A stretch of 64,000 nucleotides of DNA from Dehalococcoidia bacterium UBA2158 (GCA_002328185.1 DCWQ01000006.1:14047-78046), one strand, 5' to 3'. Shown: positions 7,132 to 38,879, counted from the first letter of the stretch. Made by a program: numbers and translations. The notes: generated from the letters alone by a model not told the origin.

Positions 7132-7228
7132 AGTTATTCTCCTCAAAGGTTCAGTGCCCCGCGCCGCAGAAATTACTCCGGTTCAGAGGCTTACTTTCTA
7201 GATTTTTCGCGGGTCTTCGAGCGCTCCC

Positions 7229-8365
7229 CTAAAGAAAGGGTATGGGCTCGAAGTTGCTGCCGGTGATCGCCTTGGCGTCCAGGCCCATCCATTGATCCAG
7301 CAGGGTGGTGTAGGCGCGGCGGAAGTCGACGTTGTGCTGTAGGTTGCCGCCGTCTTCCAGCTTGCCGGGCTCAAGGGAGGGGTACTCGCCGTAGAGGCCA
7401 CCCTTCACGTGGTCTCCGATGACGAAGGCCACTCCGCCAGTGCCGTGGTCGGTGCCGGATCCGTTGTCCATGGCTCGCCGTCCGAACTCGGAGTAGAAGA
7501 ACAACGTTACGTTGTCGCTCTTGTCCAATTGGCGGATGTCAGTCATGAATGAATCGATGCTGACGGCTACGTCCTGCAACAGGTTGGAGTGCCCCACGGC
7601 CTGGTTGGCGTGGGTGTCGAAGATGTTGTAGGGGGCCGTGGTGAACATCACCTTAGTGCCGAAGTCGGCATTGTGCACCTGGGCCATATCGCGGAGGTAT
7701 CCGCCCATGGCGCTACTGGGGTACTCGACCTCGGACCGGTACAGGCCGGGGGCGGTGCTAAGGATGTCGGCGCCCTGCAGAGCTTCGATGCCAGTCCGAC
7801 GGATGTAATCGTCCACCGCGCCCTGGCCGATGGCCGGAGCGTACATGCGTCCGAACAGGTCGAGGGCCTCGGCCCGCTGGGCTTCGGCGCCCATGTCGGT
7901 GAGTAGGCCGTAGGTGCTAAGGTCGCCCACAGATGCTACTGCCACGCCCTCTTTGGCTAGGGAGCGGGGCAGGCCGCGTCCGAAGTTGACGCCGGTGAGC
8001 ACGTTCTCGCCCTTGGGGTCAACGTCTTGAATGACGCTGCCCAACCAACCGGTGACGCCCAACTCAACGGGTTCGCAGGTGGCCCAAATGTCCATAGACC
8101 GGAAGTGCGACAGGCTGCCGTTGGGGTAGCCGATTCCCTGGATGATGGCCAAGTGGCCCTCGTCCCAGTACTTCTTCAGTGGGGCCATGGCTGGGTGGAA
8201 GCCCAGTTGATCGGTGATGGGGATTATCTGGTCCTCAGGTATTCCCAGAGACTGACGATAGTCCCGGTAGTGAGGATTGTTGTACGGGATAACCGTGTTT
8301 AAGCCATCGTTTCCACCGGACAATGACATCACTGCCAAGACCGGGTCTTTTAGCGTTGATACCAT
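7229..8365 (-). CDS. DUF1501 domain protein (sulfatase/alkaline-phosphatase-like fold)
   Basis: 378 aa. GGNDGLNTVIPY near the N-terminus and SEFGRR...NGSGTDHG near the C-terminus are DUF1501 hallmarks. A GGAGGA SD precedes the ATG, and no twin-arginine signal is visible. Confidence 0.8.
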   Translation of the reverse strand: MVSTLKDPVLAVMSLSGGNDGLNTVIPYNNPHYRDYRQSLGIPEDQIIPITDQLGFHPAMAPLKKYWDEGHLAIIQGIGYPNGSLSHFRSMDIWATCEPVELGVTGWLGSVIQDVDPKGENVLTGVNFGRGLPRSLAKEGVAVASVGDLSTYGLLTDMGAEAQRAEALDLFGRMYAPAIGQGAVDDYIRRTGIEALQGADILSTAPGLYRSEVEYPSSAMGGYLRDMAQVHNADFGTKVMFTTAPYNIFDTHANQAVGHSNLLQDVAVSIDSFMTDIRQLDKSDNVTLFFYSEFGRRAMDNGSGTDHGTGGVAFVIGDHVKGGLYGEYPSLEPGKLEDGGNLQHNVDFRRAYTTLLDQWMGLDAKAITGSNFEPIPFL

Positions 8366-8422
8366 CCTTATTCCTCCGCCTTTAGTCGGATTTCCAAATC
8401 AATCAAATCAGATGAGGAGTTC

Positions 8423-9847
8423 CTAGCCGAACTGGAACTCCGAGGTTGTGGCGATCATCTGCAGAGTCTCGCCCGCCCGACGGGAGAACTCACCCTGCTC
8501 TGCGGCGTTGCTGTGTTTCAAGGCCCCGCCAGCATCCAGGTGGTCGGTCAACTGGCTGCGGGTCTCCTGGGCCAGGTCCATAGGACCAACCAGGTCTAGG
8601 CAACCGTTCAAGAACTGTTCAGAGCTTGGCACATCGCCGATGGCCATCAGCCGGTCGATGATGTTCTTGACTCCGGGCAGCTCGGTGTTGCCCAGCATGG
8701 AAGATGCGAAGTTGATCCGGTCGATGAGGCTGCCGCTGTTGATCCACTCGCGGCCCATGTGCCAGCCCTCGACTGTCGGGGGGTTCATCAGGTCCAGGCC
8801 CATGTACTTAGGCTCCATGGCCACGAAGAACAAGCCCGGCTTGGGCTCGAGGTGGTCACCCACCATGCGCATAGTGCCGATGACCACGTCCGCGGGACTC
8901 TTGACCTTGGCGAACCGGACGGCCTCGTCCTTGAAGAAGGCCGCGTTGAACAGAACCGTCAACATGGCGGTGATCTCATAACCGGAGTCGAAGTAAGCCT
9001 TCTCGAGTTGTTTGATAGCGTCCATGTCGCGGGGTTCCGCCAAGCGCCAGGAAGGCACCGGCGGCTCGTCGGCGACGAAGAAGTCGTAGAGCTTGCGGGC
9101 GACGAACCTGGCGGTGGCCGGCTGCTTGCAGATGATGTCGACGATGTCGCCGCCATCCCAGTTGCCGGTCTCGCCCAGGAAGGTCTTCTCGCCGTAGTCG
9201 TGGTCGGCGGGGTCGAACCGGAACTCGAAGGGAGTCCGGCCATAGGGGAAGACGGGAATCGTCGGGGCCAGGTTCCAGCCGGTGAAGGCACGGGCACAGG
9301 CTTTGACGTCGTCCTCGGTGTAGTTGAATTCTTGGTCCATGCCCACGCCGATGGAGAACAGTTCCAAGAGCTCCCGGCCGTAGTTCTCATTGACGGCGGT
9401 CTTGTGGCTCTCGATGTTGTCCAGGTAATAGAGCATGGCCGGATCGGTGGAAAGCATCAGGAGCATCTCTTTGAAGTTGCCCATACCGTAGTCCCGGAAC
9501 TTGTCGATCTGGATGGCCGTGGTCCGGGCGTTATCCACCTTGTTGTCGCCAGCGCAGAGAATGGTGTGCCAGAAGAGGGACATCTTCTCTTTAAGCTGGT
9601 ACTTGTTGTTGATCATGCGGTAGACCCACTCGGTCTGACCGGTCTCGATAGCGGCCTTGTCGAAATAGGACGGATAGGCGCGGTACATTAGGTCCTCGTC
9701 TATTCCTGGGTCCTCTCCGGGATTCAGAAGCTCCGCTACCACACTGTCGTAGCCCTGGGTTACTCTGGCCTCGATCTCATCGCGGCTAGCCCCGTAACCG
9801 GCGCGACGCAGAAGGTGGGCCATCAAAGCGATCTCTTGGTCAGGCAT
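8423..9847 (-). CDS. DUF1800 domain protein
   Basis: 474 aa. HLLRRAGYGAS near the N-terminus, FWHTILC, NENYGRELLELFSIGV and the pairing with a downstream DUF1501 gene are all characteristic. Confidence 0.8.
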   Translation of the reverse strand: MPDQEIALMAHLLRRAGYGASRDEIEARVTQGYDSVVAELLNPGEDPGIDEDLMYRAYPSYFDKAAIETGQTEWVYRMINNKYQLKEKMSLFWHTILCAGDNKVDNARTTAIQIDKFRDYGMGNFKEMLLMLSTDPAMLYYLDNIESHKTAVNENYGRELLELFSIGVGMDQEFNYTEDDVKACARAFTGWNLAPTIPVFPYGRTPFEFRFDPADHDYGEKTFLGETGNWDGGDIVDIICKQPATARFVARKLYDFFVADEPPVPSWRLAEPRDMDAIKQLEKAYFDSGYEITAMLTVLFNAAFFKDEAVRFAKVKSPADVVIGTMRMVGDHLEPKPGLFFVAMEPKYMGLDLMNPPTVEGWHMGREWINSGSLIDRINFASSMLGNTELPGVKNIIDRLMAIGDVPSSEQFLNGCLDLVGPMDLAQETRSQLTDHLDAGGALKHSNAAEQGEFSRRAGETLQMIATTSEFQFG

Positions 9848-33950: not shown

Positions 33951-34988
33951 CTACCGGTTCTTCCGTTTAGCGATCATCATCATTGCGGCGATGATTAGAC
34001 ACATGGCGCCGCCCACGCCGAGCAGCACCACCGAAGCCAACGTCGACAGAAATTCCACGCTTTCCCCGAACGTCGATACCTGTTCTAGCGCCACCGCCAG
34101 GCCGCCGGCCAAGATCGTCACTCCGTATAGGATGCGAATCCGGACCGGCTCTACGAAATTGGTCGCTGTAGCCCCCAGTTGAGAGCCAATTGACGCCGCG
34201 CTGAGCATGATGATGGCCATCTTAGGGTCGACGTTGTGGGATAATGCGTAGATGAATGTGCCCCACGACCCGGTGACGATTATCTGGAATAGGTCGGTCC
34301 CGATGGCCACAGTCGTAGGCACCCCCAGCCCGAAGATCAAAGCGGGCATTAGCAGGAAGCCGCCTCCTGCCCCCAACAAACCGGCGAAGAATCCAACGCC
34401 CAAACCGACAGCCACTGGGATGAACACCGAAAGGTTCTTGATACCGGAAACCGGCAAAGAGACATATGTGGGAACCTTTCCCAAGCCTGGCAGCCAGATT
34501 GAATGAGGTGGGATACGTAAACCTTGGACCCGCCGTGCCAGGGACGCAGTTGAAATCTCCTCTTCGGCCAACTTGGAGGTACGGCGCAGCTTTAAGTAAT
34601 CGTTGACTATGAACCCGCCGAGAGCTCCCAAAAACAAAATATACACATAGCGAATCACCGGTCCGATGATACCGGCTTCTTCCAGGGTGGAGTTCAATTG
34701 CTCGGCCAGAAATACCCCTGGGATAGTGCCGACGAGCATCAGCATTCCCAGACGAAGGTCCACGTTGCCCAGATGACGGTGTTTGAGGGTGTTGATGATC
34801 GAGGAGCCCATGATCAGGGCCAATCCGGTCCCGACCGCAAATGCGGGCGGTACTCCGAAGACTAGCAGGCCTCCGGTGATCAAGAAACCTCCGCCCACTC
34901 CAAAGAACCCACTTAGAGTGCCAACCATGACACCCAAGAGCAAAAGGAGGGCTGGATTGACAGCGACTTCGGCGTTGGGGAACCACAT
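33951..34988 (-). CDS. TauE/SafE (DUF81) family anion exporter
   Basis: A polytopic membrane protein with the duplicated GGGF.L.P motif (GVGGGFLITG and GAGGGFLLMP). The start is the ATG at 34988 (MWFPNAE). Confidence 0.75.
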   Translation of the reverse strand: MWFPNAEVAVNPALLLLLGVMVGTLSGFFGVGGGFLITGGLLVFGVPPAFAVGTGLALIMGSSIINTLKHRHLGNVDLRLGMLMLVGTIPGVFLAEQLNSTLEEAGIIGPVIRYVYILFLGALGGFIVNDYLKLRRTSKLAEEEISTASLARRVQGLRIPPHSIWLPGLGKVPTYVSLPVSGIKNLSVFIPVAVGLGVGFFAGLLGAGGGFLLMPALIFGLGVPTTVAIGTDLFQIIVTGSWGTFIYALSHNVDPKMAIIMLSAASIGSQLGATATNFVEPVRIRILYGVTILAGGLAVALEQVSTFGESVEFLSTLASVVLLGVGGAMCLIIAAMMMIAKRKNR

Positions 34989-34989
34989 G

Positions 34990-35163
34990 CTAACCGCCGT
35001 CCCTTGGGCCCTTTCCTGTTTCGCTGCGGAGGGCGGCCACGGACTTGAACACCCCGGTCCAGAAAAGGTGCAGACCAACGGCAGATGAGCCGATCACACC
35101 GATGATGAGTAGCGCCCAAAGCAAAGTGTGATCGGAACTAAAATTAGTTAAGAATTCGTTCAT
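34990..35163 (-). CDS. small single-pass membrane protein (57 aa), hypothetical
   Basis: My own translation: MNEFLTNFSSDHTLLWALLIIGVIGSSAVGLHLFWTGVFKSVAALRSETGKGPRDGG. Its TAG stop is 1 nt from the TauE ATG (TAGCATG). It falls below the track size cutoff and has no clear SD. Confidence 0.35.
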   Translation of the reverse strand: MNEFLTNFSSDHTLLWALLIIGVIGSSAVGLHLFWTGVFKSVAALRSETGKGPRDGG

Positions 35164-35291: not shown

Positions 35292-36515
<1,224 letters not shown>

Positions 36516-36593
36516 GGCGTCAGGTGGACTCTGGGGTCGGTATGTGGAGCGGGTTAGGCTAGATCAAATTGGTGTGACCCGAGATTGGATCCT

Positions 36594-36651
36594 TCGACAG
36601 GCTCAGGATGAGCGGCGTTAATTGACTCTGCTTTCGTCCTGAGGCCGTCGA
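36594..36651. repeat. REP-like palindromic element between convergent tgt and moaD-like genes
   Basis: TCGACAGGCTCAGGA (36594-36608) pairs with TCCTGAGGCCGTCGA (36637-36651). The left arm carries the family core GGCTCAGGATGAGCGG. Confidence 0.6.
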
Positions 36652-36672
36652 TAGACTTTTCGGGATTGGCTG

Positions 36673-36951
36673 CTAGAAGCCGCCGGCAACCGCTGGGACT
36701 ATGCTGATTTCGTCGCCATCTGCGGTGGCCGTCTTGAGACCGTCCATGAACCGGACGTCCTCGCCGTTCAGGTAGATGTTTACGAAGTAGCGGAGTTCGC
36801 CTTCTTCATCGACCAAACGGTCTTTGAAACCGGGATACTCGTTGTTCAACTTTTCAACCAAGTCACCGAGAACGGTGGAATCAACTTCTACTTTGGCCGC
36901 GCCGTTGGTCATTTTTCGCAACGGTGTGGGGATTCGGACCACGATGCTCAT
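36673..36951 (-). CDS. MoaD/ThiS-family ubiquitin-like sulfur carrier protein, C-terminus ...AVAGGF
   Basis: 92 aa. It has a beta-grasp pattern (YFVNIYLNGEDV...DGDEISIVPAVAGG) plus one extra residue (F) after the di-glycine. Confidence 0.8.
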   Translation of the reverse strand: MSIVVRIPTPLRKMTNGAAKVEVDSTVLGDLVEKLNNEYPGFKDRLVDEEGELRYFVNIYLNGEDVRFMDGLKTATADGDEISIVPAVAGGF

Positions 36952-37011
36952 CTGGAAATACCCTCCTAAATTTGCGCCCAGTATTTAATCTTTGGGAAGC
37001 AGGACCAAGTC

Positions 37012-37254
37012 CTACCCGTCAATCACGTCCCCGCCAAGCGGGTCTACCCTCACACCCGTGGACCTGACCCATTCCAGCCCACGCTTTATCTCTGTCTCAT
37101 CGCCTTCCAGCTCCAGTACCACCCAACCCACGTCTTCGCCGATGTCGGCCCGGCGGATGTTGGTTATGATCTGGAACTTCCGGCCCAACTCGTAAATCAC
37201 CGGTTGCTTCACCAAGGTTTCCTCGAAAGTGAATTTTACTCTCTGCTTACCCAT
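37012..37254 (-). CDS. stand-alone NIL-domain protein
   Basis: About 80 aa. VKFTFEETLVKQPVIYELGRKFQIITNIRRADIGEDVGWVVLELEGDETEIKRGLEWVRSTGVRVD matches the NIL (MetN C-terminal-like) domain pattern. The start is the ATG at 37254 after GGGAGGTGA. Confidence 0.65.
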   Translation of the reverse strand: MGKQRVKFTFEETLVKQPVIYELGRKFQIITNIRRADIGEDVGWVVLELEGDETEIKRGLEWVRSTGVRVDPLGGDVIDG

Positions 37255-37296
37255 GCCCAATCACCTCCCGGGTTCCTACCTCGATTTTTAGCTCGG

Positions 37297-38574
37297 CTAT
37301 TTCGCCCCTTCGAACACGCTTTCAAACGAACCAATGGTTGGTTTGATGGAGAGCGGGTTCACCACTTGCTCCACCGCCTCCTGGGTCTTGAGTCCGTTGC
37401 CAGTGATGTAAACGACGGTCAATTCATCGGGCTTTATGGCGCCTGACTTGGCCAGGTTCTTTAGACCTGAGACCGTCACGCCGCCGGCTGTCTCGGTGAA
37501 GATGCCTTCAGTCTCGGCCAACAGCTTGATGCCTTCCACTATATCCGATTCCGGCACCGCGTAGGCGGAGCCGCCGGACCTTTCGATCACTTTGATGGCG
37601 TAGATGCCGTCGGCCGGGTTGCCGATGGCCAGGGACTTAGCGATGCTGTCGGGCCGCACCGGGATGACCTGAGTCTGGTTACTGTTCCAGGCCGTGGCGA
37701 TAGGCGAGCATCCCTCAGCCTGTTGCATGTGCATCCTTGTGGTTACGGCCGGGTGATGAACGGTGTTCTGGTCCACGCCGAAGGAACTGGAGGAAACGCC
37801 GTCCAACAGGCCCAAACAGGCCAGCTCGTTGAATCCCTTCCAAATCTTGGTGAACATGGCGCCGGAGGCCGAAGGAACGACCACGTGGTCCGGAAGCCGC
37901 CAGCCCAGTTGCTCCGCCACTTCATAACCCAGGGTCTTGCTGCCCTCGGCGTAGTAAGGGCGCATGTTGATGTTTACGAAGGCCCAGGGGTAATCGTCGG
38001 CCAACTCGCTGCAGAGACGGTTAACCTGGTCGTAGGTGCCGTCCACGGCTACCAGCACAGGGTTGTAGATGGCAGCGCCGATAATCTTGCCCTTTTCCAA
38101 GTCGGAGGGGATGAAAACGACGGCGCGGACACCGGCCCGGGCACAGTGGGCCGCTACGCTACAGGCCAGATTTCCAGTCGAGGCGCAGGCGATGGTCTCG
38201 TAGCCGAATTCCAGGGCCTTGGTTGCCGCCACGGAAACCACCCGGTCTTTGAAAGAGAACGACGGGTTAACACTGTCGTTCTTGATGTACAGATTGCTGA
38301 GACCCAGCGTCTTACCCAGGCCTCTAGCTTTGATCAGAGGCGTGAAGCCTGCTTGGATGTCGACGGGGTCGTCACCCTGGGCAGGGAGCAGGTCCTTGTA
38401 ACGCCAGATGCTAAGCGGCCCCGAAGCGATACTGTCCTGACTGACCACCTCGGAGATGGTGGCGTAGTCGTATACCACTTCCAGAGGGCCGAAGCAGAAA
38501 TCGCATACGTTCAGCGGATCGGCAGGGTATTCTCTACCGCATTCGCGGCATTTAAGTCCATTTATGAAAGCCAC
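37297..38574 (-). CDS. threonine-synthase-like fold-type II PLP enzyme with N-terminal zinc ribbon
   Basis: 425 aa. CRECGREY...CDFCFGPLEV forms the zinc ribbon and the PLP lysine motif is FSFKDR. GTG start at 38574 after AGGAGGGA. Confidence 0.8.
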   Translation of the reverse strand: MAFINGLKCRECGREYPADPLNVCDFCFGPLEVVYDYATISEVVSQDSIASGPLSIWRYKDLLPAQGDDPVDIQAGFTPLIKARGLGKTLGLSNLYIKNDSVNPSFSFKDRVVSVAATKALEFGYETIACASTGNLACSVAAHCARAGVRAVVFIPSDLEKGKIIGAAIYNPVLVAVDGTYDQVNRLCSELADDYPWAFVNINMRPYYAEGSKTLGYEVAEQLGWRLPDHVVVPSASGAMFTKIWKGFNELACLGLLDGVSSSSFGVDQNTVHHPAVTTRMHMQQAEGCSPIATAWNSNQTQVIPVRPDSIAKSLAIGNPADGIYAIKVIERSGGSAYAVPESDIVEGIKLLAETEGIFTETAGGVTVSGLKNLAKSGAIKPDELTVVYITGNGLKTQEAVEQVVNPLSIKPTIGSFESVFEGAK

Positions 38575-38656
38575 CTAGGTCGGTCCCTCCTGGCCTCAAA
38601 AAGGCTGGCGCAAAAGCCCAAATAAGCCTGGAATATATCTCTCCAGGCTGCCAGTG

Positions 38657-38685
38657 ATAGTAACAAAGCACCTATGTGATGTCAA
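38657..38685 (-). promoter_or_regulatory. sigma-70-type promoter for the thrC-like/NIL/moaD-like operon
   Basis: On the minus strand: TTGACA (38685-38680), a 17-nt spacer, then TACTAT (38662-38657). It lies ~80 nt upstream of the GTG start. Confidence 0.5.
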
Positions 38686-38879
38686 CTTGGCTCACGCCTG
38701 GGAGAGGGCTTCCGTGAGCCTGAGAGCTCCTTCGTTCAAAATCCGGTCCGCGATGATATAATCCGCGGAGAATTTGCCCCCGGAGGGCGACCAGCATAAA
38801 TAATATCTGGGGAATACCTCTGCTCCGCCCACATCACATAAGCCTCCTTCAGCAGTTCTCCATACCACTCATCATTGGC

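Follow-up and report, generated by a model that had tools for sequence, protein, structure and literature searches.

A stand-alone NIL gene conserved within a probable MetM/MetO-type homocysteine-synthesis operon of Dehalococcoidia

What does an enzyme that resembles threonine synthase do when its gene is followed by those for a small NIL-domain protein and a ubiquitin-like sulfur carrier? The question is raised by an operon at positions 36673-38685 of a 64,000-nucleotide stretch of DNA (the window) from Dehalococcoidia bacterium UBA2158 (GCA_002328185.1 DCWQ01000006.1:14047-78046), which matches contigs of SAR202/Dehalococcoidia metagenome-assembled genomes (MAGs) from seawater and hydrothermal-vent metagenomes. 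Three co-directional genes lie on the minus strand behind a single promoter: a metM-type gene (38574..37297), which encodes 425 amino acids from a GTG start ~10 nt past AGGAGGG; a NIL gene (37254..37012), which encodes 80 amino acids from an ATG start; and a metO-type carrier gene (36951..36673), which encodes 92 amino acids with the C-terminus IVPAVAGGF. All gene calls and database homologues agree on the ATG and the 80 residues of the NIL protein, leaving a TTG start that would give 82 amino acids unused. The initial annotation of this locus had named the three domains, and Pfam concurs. The first protein matches PALP at 5.6e-67 together with a Zn-ribbon family, the second matches PF09383 (NIL) at 2.3e-16 as its sole Pfam domain, and the third matches PF02597 (ThiS) at 1.9e-14, with the SAMP1 and moaD_arch models also over their cutoffs.

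The operon is very probably a member of the MetM/MetO system of homocysteine synthesis, as first proposed, and its NIL gene encodes a real third component, conserved among relatives. Gene order indicates that the three belong together. The order metM-NIL-metO recurs in ~70 of 80 Dehalococcoidia species-representative genomes, so the arrangement stands far above chance, and the conservation that the initial annotation's reading implied is indeed there. Three further strands carry the assignment: the enzyme falls in a clade with a MetM signature, its actinobacterial relatives sit beside MetO and behind S-adenosylmethionine (SAM) riboswitches, and the carrier resembles CysO.

The plainest alternative follows from the names in the databases, where homologues of the enzyme are called 'threonine synthase' throughout: an ordinary threonine synthase would merely neighbor a MoaD of molybdopterin synthesis and an unrelated NIL protein. 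Model scores lend this some credence, as the window enzyme reaches 271.6 bits on the NCBIfam thrC model TIGR00260, whose cutoff is 167.1, and a molybdopterin-dependent dehydrogenase encoded in the window means that the genome needs a MoaD somewhere. The CysK and CysM models give only 33-40 bits, and the best NCBIfam and PDB matches are all ThrC. TIGR00260, however, cannot separate MetM from ThrC, and on PRK08197 the enzyme scores 276.4 bits, under the cutoff of 303. Solved threonine synthases align only from residue ~55 onward, at E 1e-57 or weaker; they lack a ~20-residue insertion of the window enzyme and differ from it at the sites that contact the substrate phosphate. A four-cysteine Zn ribbon occupies residues 8-32.

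The active-site motifs differ as well. At the lysine that holds pyridoxal 5'-phosphate (PLP), canonical ThrC reads NPTGSFKDR and the window enzyme NPSFSFKDR; a first loop is STGNT[SA]A in the former and STGNLAC in the latter; and a second loop is N-SVNPxR[IL]EGQKT in canonical ThrC as against NINMRPYYAEGSKT here. Homologues were collected by a whole-library HMMER search that yielded 150 representatives, and motifs were compared among the full-length ones. The signature STGNL plus RP[YF]YAEG[SA]KT unites the window enzyme with other Dehalococcoidia, Actinobacteria and archaeal sequences, whereas canonical ThrC and the other Zn-ribbon ThrC-like groups carry different motifs. In neighbor-joining trees, the MetM-signature clade was monophyletic in 100 of 100 bootstraps, as were the Dehalococcoidia enzymes within it, and Dehalococcoidia grouped with Actinobacteria in 79 of 100. 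The actinobacterial clade member P0127 (Micromonosporaceae) is 53% identical to the window enzyme. Judged by its sequence, therefore, the window enzyme is of the MetM type and not a canonical threonine synthase.

Genomes that hold both enzymes point the same way. In the Chloroflexota MAG locus L217, a canonical ThrC (NPTGSFKDR, STGNTAA, NSVNPDRIQGQKT) lies 1.5 kb upstream of a metM-type gene with metO adjoining and no NIL. When this ThrC served as query, genes were retrieved from 80 genomes, mostly Chloroflexota, and 69 of the 80 bore the canonical motifs. Three Dehalococcoidia genomes carry a canonical ThrC together with the metM-NIL-metO operon, namely the OZ253586.1 chromosome (loci L060 and L306) and the isolates bbcfa8fe (L059 and L297) and 4f5989e1 (L081 and L308); the window's own MAG is incomplete, and the 64-kb window has no second ThrC, NIL or MoaD homologue. 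With a separate clade and a canonical ThrC in related genomes, the enzyme thus neither clusters with threonine synthases nor stands as the lineage's only thrC, the circumstances that the initial annotation had named as telling against its reading. GapMind 2026, moreover, notes that MetM is commonly misannotated as threonine synthase.

Some Zn-ribbon ThrC-like groups outside the MetM clade (P0249, P0270, P0225 and P0267) are fused at the C-terminus to LeuA allosteric/dimerisation or PadR winged-helix domains, which suggests further uncharacterised, regulated ThrC paralogues.

What, then, would a MetM-type enzyme make? According to GapMind 2026, the pathway of Streptomyces albulus consists of MetO (the carrier), Mec, MoeZ and MetM. 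A cyanobacterial study (PMC12172450), which cites Hasebe et al. 2024, describes an upstream SAM riboswitch and a neighboring metO for S. albulus metM, and the Streptomyces homologue is reported there and in GapMind 2026 as a homocysteine synthase. With the 53%-identical Micromonosporaceae representative as query, 80 actinobacterial loci were fetched. In nearly all loci from Streptomyces, Streptosporangium, Nocardioides and similar genera, a MetO-like gene lies directly downstream, and its product ends PAVAGG or PAVAGGC. A SAM-I riboswitch (RF00162, 56-79 bits) was found directly upstream of metM in 11 of the 11 actinobacterial loci scanned, so this enzyme family is under SAM control, as expected of methionine biosynthesis. 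The pairing of MetM with an adjacent MetO extends to Cyanobacteria, Acidimicrobiia, Chloroflexota and archaea. In a group of loci from Micromonosporaceae, Jatrophihabitans and Blastococcus (L087-L112), one of which (L090) has an upstream SAM-I riboswitch, the metM-type gene has no MetO-like gene within 6 kb, so the carrier there must lie elsewhere or be shared, e.g. with CysO.

The carrier itself brings a second alternative into view. Its best solved relative, aligned end to end, is CysO of Mycobacterium tuberculosis (3dwg_C, E 1.7e-21), followed by the CysO-type 4n6e_B, with the MoaDs of molybdenum cofactor synthesis much weaker. The operon could on that account make cysteine, as CysM and CysO do, from O-phosphoserine and the carrier thiocarboxylate. 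In the Manganitrophaceae locus L216, metM-metO-NIL comes after genes for a CysK-type cysteine synthase and for a ThiF; with enzymes of the cysteine and the homocysteine type side by side, this locus shows that the two kinds of carrier system can be mixed. The PLP enzyme, however, is a member of the ThrC family, which acts on O-phosphohomoserine, and not of CysK/CysM; SAM riboswitches, which respond to a methionine/SAM signal, govern relatives of the same clade; NIL domains are linked with methionine rather than cysteine; and the Streptomyces report cited above speaks of homocysteine. A cysteine product is accordingly very unlikely, and homocysteine is favored by the position of the actinobacterial relatives, downstream of SAM-I riboswitches and beside MetO.

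Nor does the carrier appear to serve molybdopterin synthesis, a role whose absence the initial annotation had presupposed and which a separate MoaD elsewhere in the genome may fill. No moaE adjoins it in any of ~240 loci, where a MetM-type gene is almost always adjacent, and CysO is its best PDB match. Together with the active-site motifs, the separate clade, the coexisting canonical ThrC and the riboswitches of relatives, this leaves the ordinary threonine synthase with its chance neighbors largely refuted and even less probable than the cysteine route.

The carrier of the window ends in PAVAGGF, from which trimming had been anticipated, and its relatives end in GG or in GG plus one to three residues. 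The C-terminus is exactly GG in 31 of ~85 Dehalococcoidia copies, and most of the others have 1-3 unconserved residues past it (F, A, R, S, V, C, LT, TA). Variation of this kind is what a tail destined for removal by a peptidase would show, like the GGC of some Streptomyces, and the terminal Phe of the window carrier presumably must come off to expose Gly-Gly. In one Dehalococcoidia genome (L054), two tandem MetO-like carrier genes (7616-7909 and 7910-8197) follow metM-NIL.

A carrier of this kind would depend on two further enzymes, an E1-like activating enzyme and a JAMM-type peptidase. For these, ~240 loci and the window were searched with a ThiF-domain phmmer search and a scan for the JAMM motif. 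The 64-kb window holds neither a ThiF domain nor a JAMM motif, in keeping with what had been noted at the outset. In other lineages, the E1 is close at hand. ThiF adjoins metM/metO in Geoglobus, Elusimicrobia and Manganitrophaceae, and P0230 is a ThiF-MetM-like fusion. In the ammonia-oxidising Nitrososphaerota, which are archaea, metM is followed by a gene for a MetO-ThiF fusion (L181 at 7198-8514, and L184, L188, L196, L197, L199, L201, L208, L209, L218, L239 and L241), in which the carrier reads ...ILPAVAGG and the E1 domain follows directly, so that it would need cleavage after GG or would act in cis.

Two absences weigh against placing the window operon in the MetM/MetO system: the 6-kb flanks of 80 Dehalococcoidia loci contain neither an E1 nor a JAMM gene, and the leader of the window operon gave no riboswitch match in an Rfam scan at E<=1, just as 11 other Dehalococcoidia loci that were scanned have no SAM riboswitch. 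Because neither enzyme is found in the window or in the 6-kb flanks of its relatives, their presence elsewhere in this genome is assumed.

With family knowledge of the CysM/CysO, HcyS/MetY and MetM/MetO systems as a guide, a mechanism can be proposed. A JAMM-type peptidase encoded elsewhere would trim MetO from ...GGF to ...GG, and an E1-like MoeZ/ThiF, likewise encoded elsewhere, would adenylate MetO and then convert it to the C-terminal thiocarboxylate. MetM, a ThrC-like PLP enzyme, would eliminate phosphate from O-phospho-L-homoserine and add the thiocarboxylate sulfur at C-gamma, in place of the water that gives threonine. Homocysteine would be formed directly or by way of a MetO-homocysteine adduct that is first released. 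The metM-type product is thus predicted to be a homocysteine synthase dependent on O-phosphohomoserine and MetO thiocarboxylate.

Viewed beside the systems already described, this operon shares with MetM/MetO of S. albulus a Zn-ribbon ThrC homologue bearing the same two signature motifs and an adjacent, CysO-like PAVAGG carrier, on which the single extra residue of the GGC found on some Streptomyces carriers is comparable to the GGF found here. It differs in having NIL between metM and metO, in lacking the SAM-I riboswitch, in place of which it has a promoter-spacer motif and a short hairpin leader, in the unlinked E1 and Mec, and in its host, an uncultured marine Chloroflexota lineage. The CysM/CysO/Mec/MoeZ system of M. 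tuberculosis offers the same logic of a fold-type II PLP enzyme that uses a ubiquitin-like thiocarboxylate and a phosphorylated hydroxy-amino acid, again with a JAMM peptidase and an E1 needed. Here, in contrast, the enzyme is of the ThrC family with O-phosphohomoserine as predicted substrate and homocysteine as predicted product, mec and moeZ are unclustered, and a NIL protein is present.

Wolinella succinogenes provides a third comparison. There, an extra C-terminal residue of the carrier is cut off by a metalloprotease and homocysteine is made from the carrier thiocarboxylate, but the enzyme is MetY, an O-acetylhomoserine sulfhydrylase of fold type I that acts with O-acetylhomoserine, rather than a ThrC homologue acting with O-phosphohomoserine. 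That pathway is not known to include a NIL protein. This protein-thiocarboxylate methionine pathway, HcyS/HcyD/HcyF/MetY, was reportedly described by Krishnamoorthy and Begley in 2011.

It is the NIL protein that makes the Dehalococcoidia operon unusual. Among 74 Dehalococcoidia copies, the segment TNIRRA is invariant in all, and T33, N34, I35, R36, A38, G45-W46, L49-E50, G53, W64, G69 and D78 vary little or not at all. The window protein has no cysteine, and neither do 72 of the 74. Databases name these 80-residue proteins 'FeS-binding protein' or 'ABC-type methionine transport system ATPase subunit' (P0294, P0298, P0299), despite the lack of cysteine and of an ATPase domain.

Beyond the Dehalococcoidia, a broader locus scan for metM and metO with a 10-sequence alignment found NIL adjoining the pair in further lineages and in varied gene orders; NIL is adjacent to metM/metO in five phyla. 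The order M-NIL-O is seen in Anaerolineaceae (L235) and in two further Chloroflexota loci (L210 and L195). In Elusimicrobia (L214, 2876-5666), the order is M-O-NIL-ThiF with overlapping genes, and in Manganitrophaceae of the Nitrospirota (L216, 4138-8610), it is CysK-ThiF-M-O-NIL-ThiF. Two Tepidisphaeraceae loci (Planctomycetes) have M-O-NIL, with the three genes adjacent in L237 and with metO-NIL ~2 kb downstream of metM in L227. SAM-I riboswitches (71-86 bits) precede four of these NIL-containing operons (L195, L235, L227 and L237), which argues that NIL is co-regulated with methionine synthesis. A further idea, that NIL substitutes for the SAM riboswitch, was rejected on the same four loci, as they have both.

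In Acidimicrobiaceae (L174, L175, L189, L192, L198 and L207), a same-strand NIL gene lies 3-4 kb downstream of metM-metO, separated from metO by GroEL, chlorite-dismutase-like and NAD-synthase-like genes; this is weak evidence of a link and possibly mere synteny. In the Dehalococcoidia locus L022, the gap between metM and metO that usually holds NIL is filled by an unrelated 111-residue open reading frame (7302-7637) with coiled-coil and transmembrane character, QLMEGQR repeats and a C-terminal hydrophobic segment; metM-metO gaps also occur in L027 and L040. No fusion of NIL to a MetM-like enzyme was seen among the 150 best enzyme representatives, where ThiF, LeuA-allosteric-domain and PadR fusions were found instead.

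A stand-alone NIL protein had been thought foreign to the described systems, and so it appears: NIL is absent from the actinobacterial loci, goes unmentioned in the GapMind 2026 description of the pathway, and a literature search found no paper that links NIL domains with sulfur-carrier proteins.

What might such a protein contribute? An AlphaFold2 model (predicted local distance difference test score, pLDDT, 82) has the topology beta-alpha-beta-beta-alpha-beta, and the top 10 Foldseek matches are all MetN C2/NIL domains (TM-score 0.75-0.82, root-mean-square deviation 1.6-2.6 A); the next are the serine-binding ACT domains of phosphoglycerate dehydrogenase. In alignments to MetN C2 domains (2qrr, 5e-4), N34 corresponds to MetN N295 and A38 to A299, and both residues are invariant in 74 of 74 Dehalococcoidia copies. 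In Escherichia coli MetN, N295 hydrogen-bonds L-methionine across the C2 dimer, N295A abolishes binding, and A299 is part of the strand that relays the signal by a shift in register (PMC6233128). NIL domains also accompany another route to homocysteine. In the DUF39/L-ASST pathway, a NIL-ferredoxin subunit is genetically required (PMC5764234), and its NIL domain is reported to bind methionine and to act as a regulator (PMC12068725).

The MetN C2 fold, the conserved methionine-contacting Asn and the regulatory NIL domain of the DUF39/L-ASST pathway favor a sensor role. In such a role, NIL would bind methionine or a close relative and modulate MetM or carrier loading as feedback control. That NIL is a trans-acting methionine sensor of this kind is put forward tentatively, at somewhat under an even chance. 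The more specific form, in which it would be a dedicated third subunit that binds MetM or acts at the MetO-E1 loading step and shuts the pathway down allosterically, is a shade more tentative. The likeness to MetN C2 of the MetNI methionine importer extends to the predicted fold, the Asn and the Ala of the dimer-interface strand, whereas the NIL protein here stands alone in a biosynthetic operon instead of forming the C-terminus of an ATP-binding cassette ATPase, and its partner is presumably MetM, MetO or the E1 and not a nucleotide-binding domain. As to the DUF39/COG1900 NIL-ferredoxins (MA1821/MA1822, DvMF_1464/DvMF_0262), both settings pair NIL with a homocysteine-forming enzyme and involve proposed methionine binding; the protein here has no ferredoxin domain, consistent with its lack of cysteine, and the sulfur chemistry and substrate are entirely different. 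No COG1900/DUF39 gene occurs in the Pfam maps of the window.

Several observations temper these proposals for NIL. Ligand binding is deduced from domains only ~22-28% identical, and Asp takes the place of the conserved Asn in some copies from Acidimicrobiaceae and Planctomycetes. Furthermore, a sub-clade of ~10 Dehalococcoidia loci has no adjacent NIL and all 80 actinobacterial loci lack the gene, so NIL seems dispensable for the core chemistry.

NIL could instead serve the sulfur relay as a structural adaptor or as its chaperone, with no part in ligand sensing, and be needed for efficient transfer rather than feedback. It could, for instance, dock the MetO thiocarboxylate or the E1 onto MetM, or shield the thiocarboxylate. 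Gene order lends this some appeal, as NIL lies between metO and thiF with overlapping boundaries in the Elusimicrobia locus and between metO and the second thiF in the Manganitrophaceae locus. The NIL-ferredoxin of the DUF39 pathway is likewise required genetically and not merely regulatory (PMC5764234), and some NIL operons have SAM riboswitches, so that regulation at the RNA level is already there. The near-universal lack of cysteine, however, makes it impossible for NIL to carry a persulfide; its nearest solved relatives, MetN C2 and then ACT, are ligand-binding regulatory domains; Dehalococcoidia copies never vary at the methionine-contacting Asn or the strand Ala; and the systems of Actinobacteria and Cyanobacteria work with no adjacent NIL. 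On balance, a purely structural role is rather unlikely, and a methionine sensor is the reading carried forward here.

If the sensor reading is true, NIL is a portable feedback sensor that has become attached at least three times, to the MetN importer, to the DUF39/L-ASST enzyme and to MetM/MetO, and the present operon would offer the first case of a NIL protein that regulates a PLP enzyme in trans.

How, finally, is the operon expressed? A sigma-70-type promoter occupies 38657..38685 on the minus strand, with the -35 element TTGACA at 38685-38680 and the -10 element TACTAT at 38662-38657. With a 17-nt spacer, 10 of 12 consensus matches and a TG extension, TTGACA-17-TACTAT is as good a promoter as the initial annotation had held. 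Expression was followed in Logan contigs from four metatranscriptome runs, which are unstranded and in which DNA carry-over is possible. One contig (37083-38633) covers metM, the metM-NIL junction and part of NIL, and two others (36300-37125 and 36893-37064) bridge the NIL-metO junction. RNA depth is zero over 38666-38756 in all four metatranscriptomes, and two RNA contigs terminate at 38633, ~17 nt inside the predicted transcript. These contigs fit a single transcript that begins just downstream of the predicted -10 element.

The promoter spacer holds a motif, TTGACAnnnnATAGGnnCTTTGnTAnnAT (also written ATAGGSSCTTTG), that occurs once in the 64-kb window, where 0 occurrences are expected by chance. 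Of 80 Dehalococcoidia loci, 42 have it, in each case 50-141 nt upstream of metM, and no other copy occurs in ~1 Mb of locus flanks. The spacer is kept among genomes with diverged leaders (L005-L082) and forms an imperfect palindrome, A[TA]AGG-SS-CCT[TA]T. It looks like a candidate operator that overlaps the promoter and would serve a methionine regulator. The single promoter would drive the whole operon, and the lineage-conserved spacer motif would replace the SAM-I riboswitch of other lineages.

The 5' leader of ~76 nt (38575..38650, minus strand) consists of a hairpin, a U-rich tract and the Shine-Dalgarno sequence AGGAGGG ~10 nt before the GTG. The hairpin, which had been listed with 8 bp, has 8-9 bp at 38625-38649, with arms AGCCTGGA and TCCAGGCT, and persists in the 8 nearest relatives, where two pairs have changed in a compensatory way; the fold of the whole leader is unexceptional (z-score -1.4). 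The alternative pairing that had been suggested for its 5' arm, with CCAGG of the Shine-Dalgarno region, did not hold up, as it is lost in L007 and L009, where the arms have changed. A known riboswitch was discarded as a candidate for this leader on the Rfam result given above.

Two features thus set the operon apart, a conserved NIL gene that stands alone and a control that does without a riboswitch. Publication of the core pathway dates from 2024 (Hasebe et al., AEM 90:e01247-24); the literature searched yielded nothing on a NIL partner, on its presence in several phyla or on the sensor role that is plausible for it. If the assignment is correct, NIL adds a component beyond the four steps of GapMind 2026. 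A small methionine sensor acting in trans may control a protein-thiocarboxylate pathway, and two homocysteine routes that are not homologous share this NIL module. MetM and MetO are widely paired, as seen in Cyanobacteria, Nitrososphaerota (as MetO-E1 fusions), Acidimicrobiia, Planctomycetes, Nitrospirota and Elusimicrobia. In the dark ocean, SAR202 and other Dehalococcoidia rank with the most abundant bacteria, and the label 'threonine synthase' would conceal their route of methionine synthesis. Recognition of MetM/MetO would fill this gap in the methionine pathway and correct a systematic misannotation in hundreds of genomes, one that involves the names 'threonine synthase', 'FeS-binding protein' and 'ABC-type methionine transport ATPase subunit'.

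The genes around the operon in the Pfam maps are unrelated to it and include NhaA, tgt, TauE, 3-dehydroquinate (DHQ) synthase, asd, dapB and the molybdo-dehydrogenase, among others. Two genes downstream of the operon, at 33951-35078 on the minus strand, lies a membrane protein of the TauE/SafE family, which is sulfite-exporter-like. A gene of this family is found near the operon in 31 of 80 Dehalococcoidia loci, which may reflect mere synteny or a sulfur-related link.

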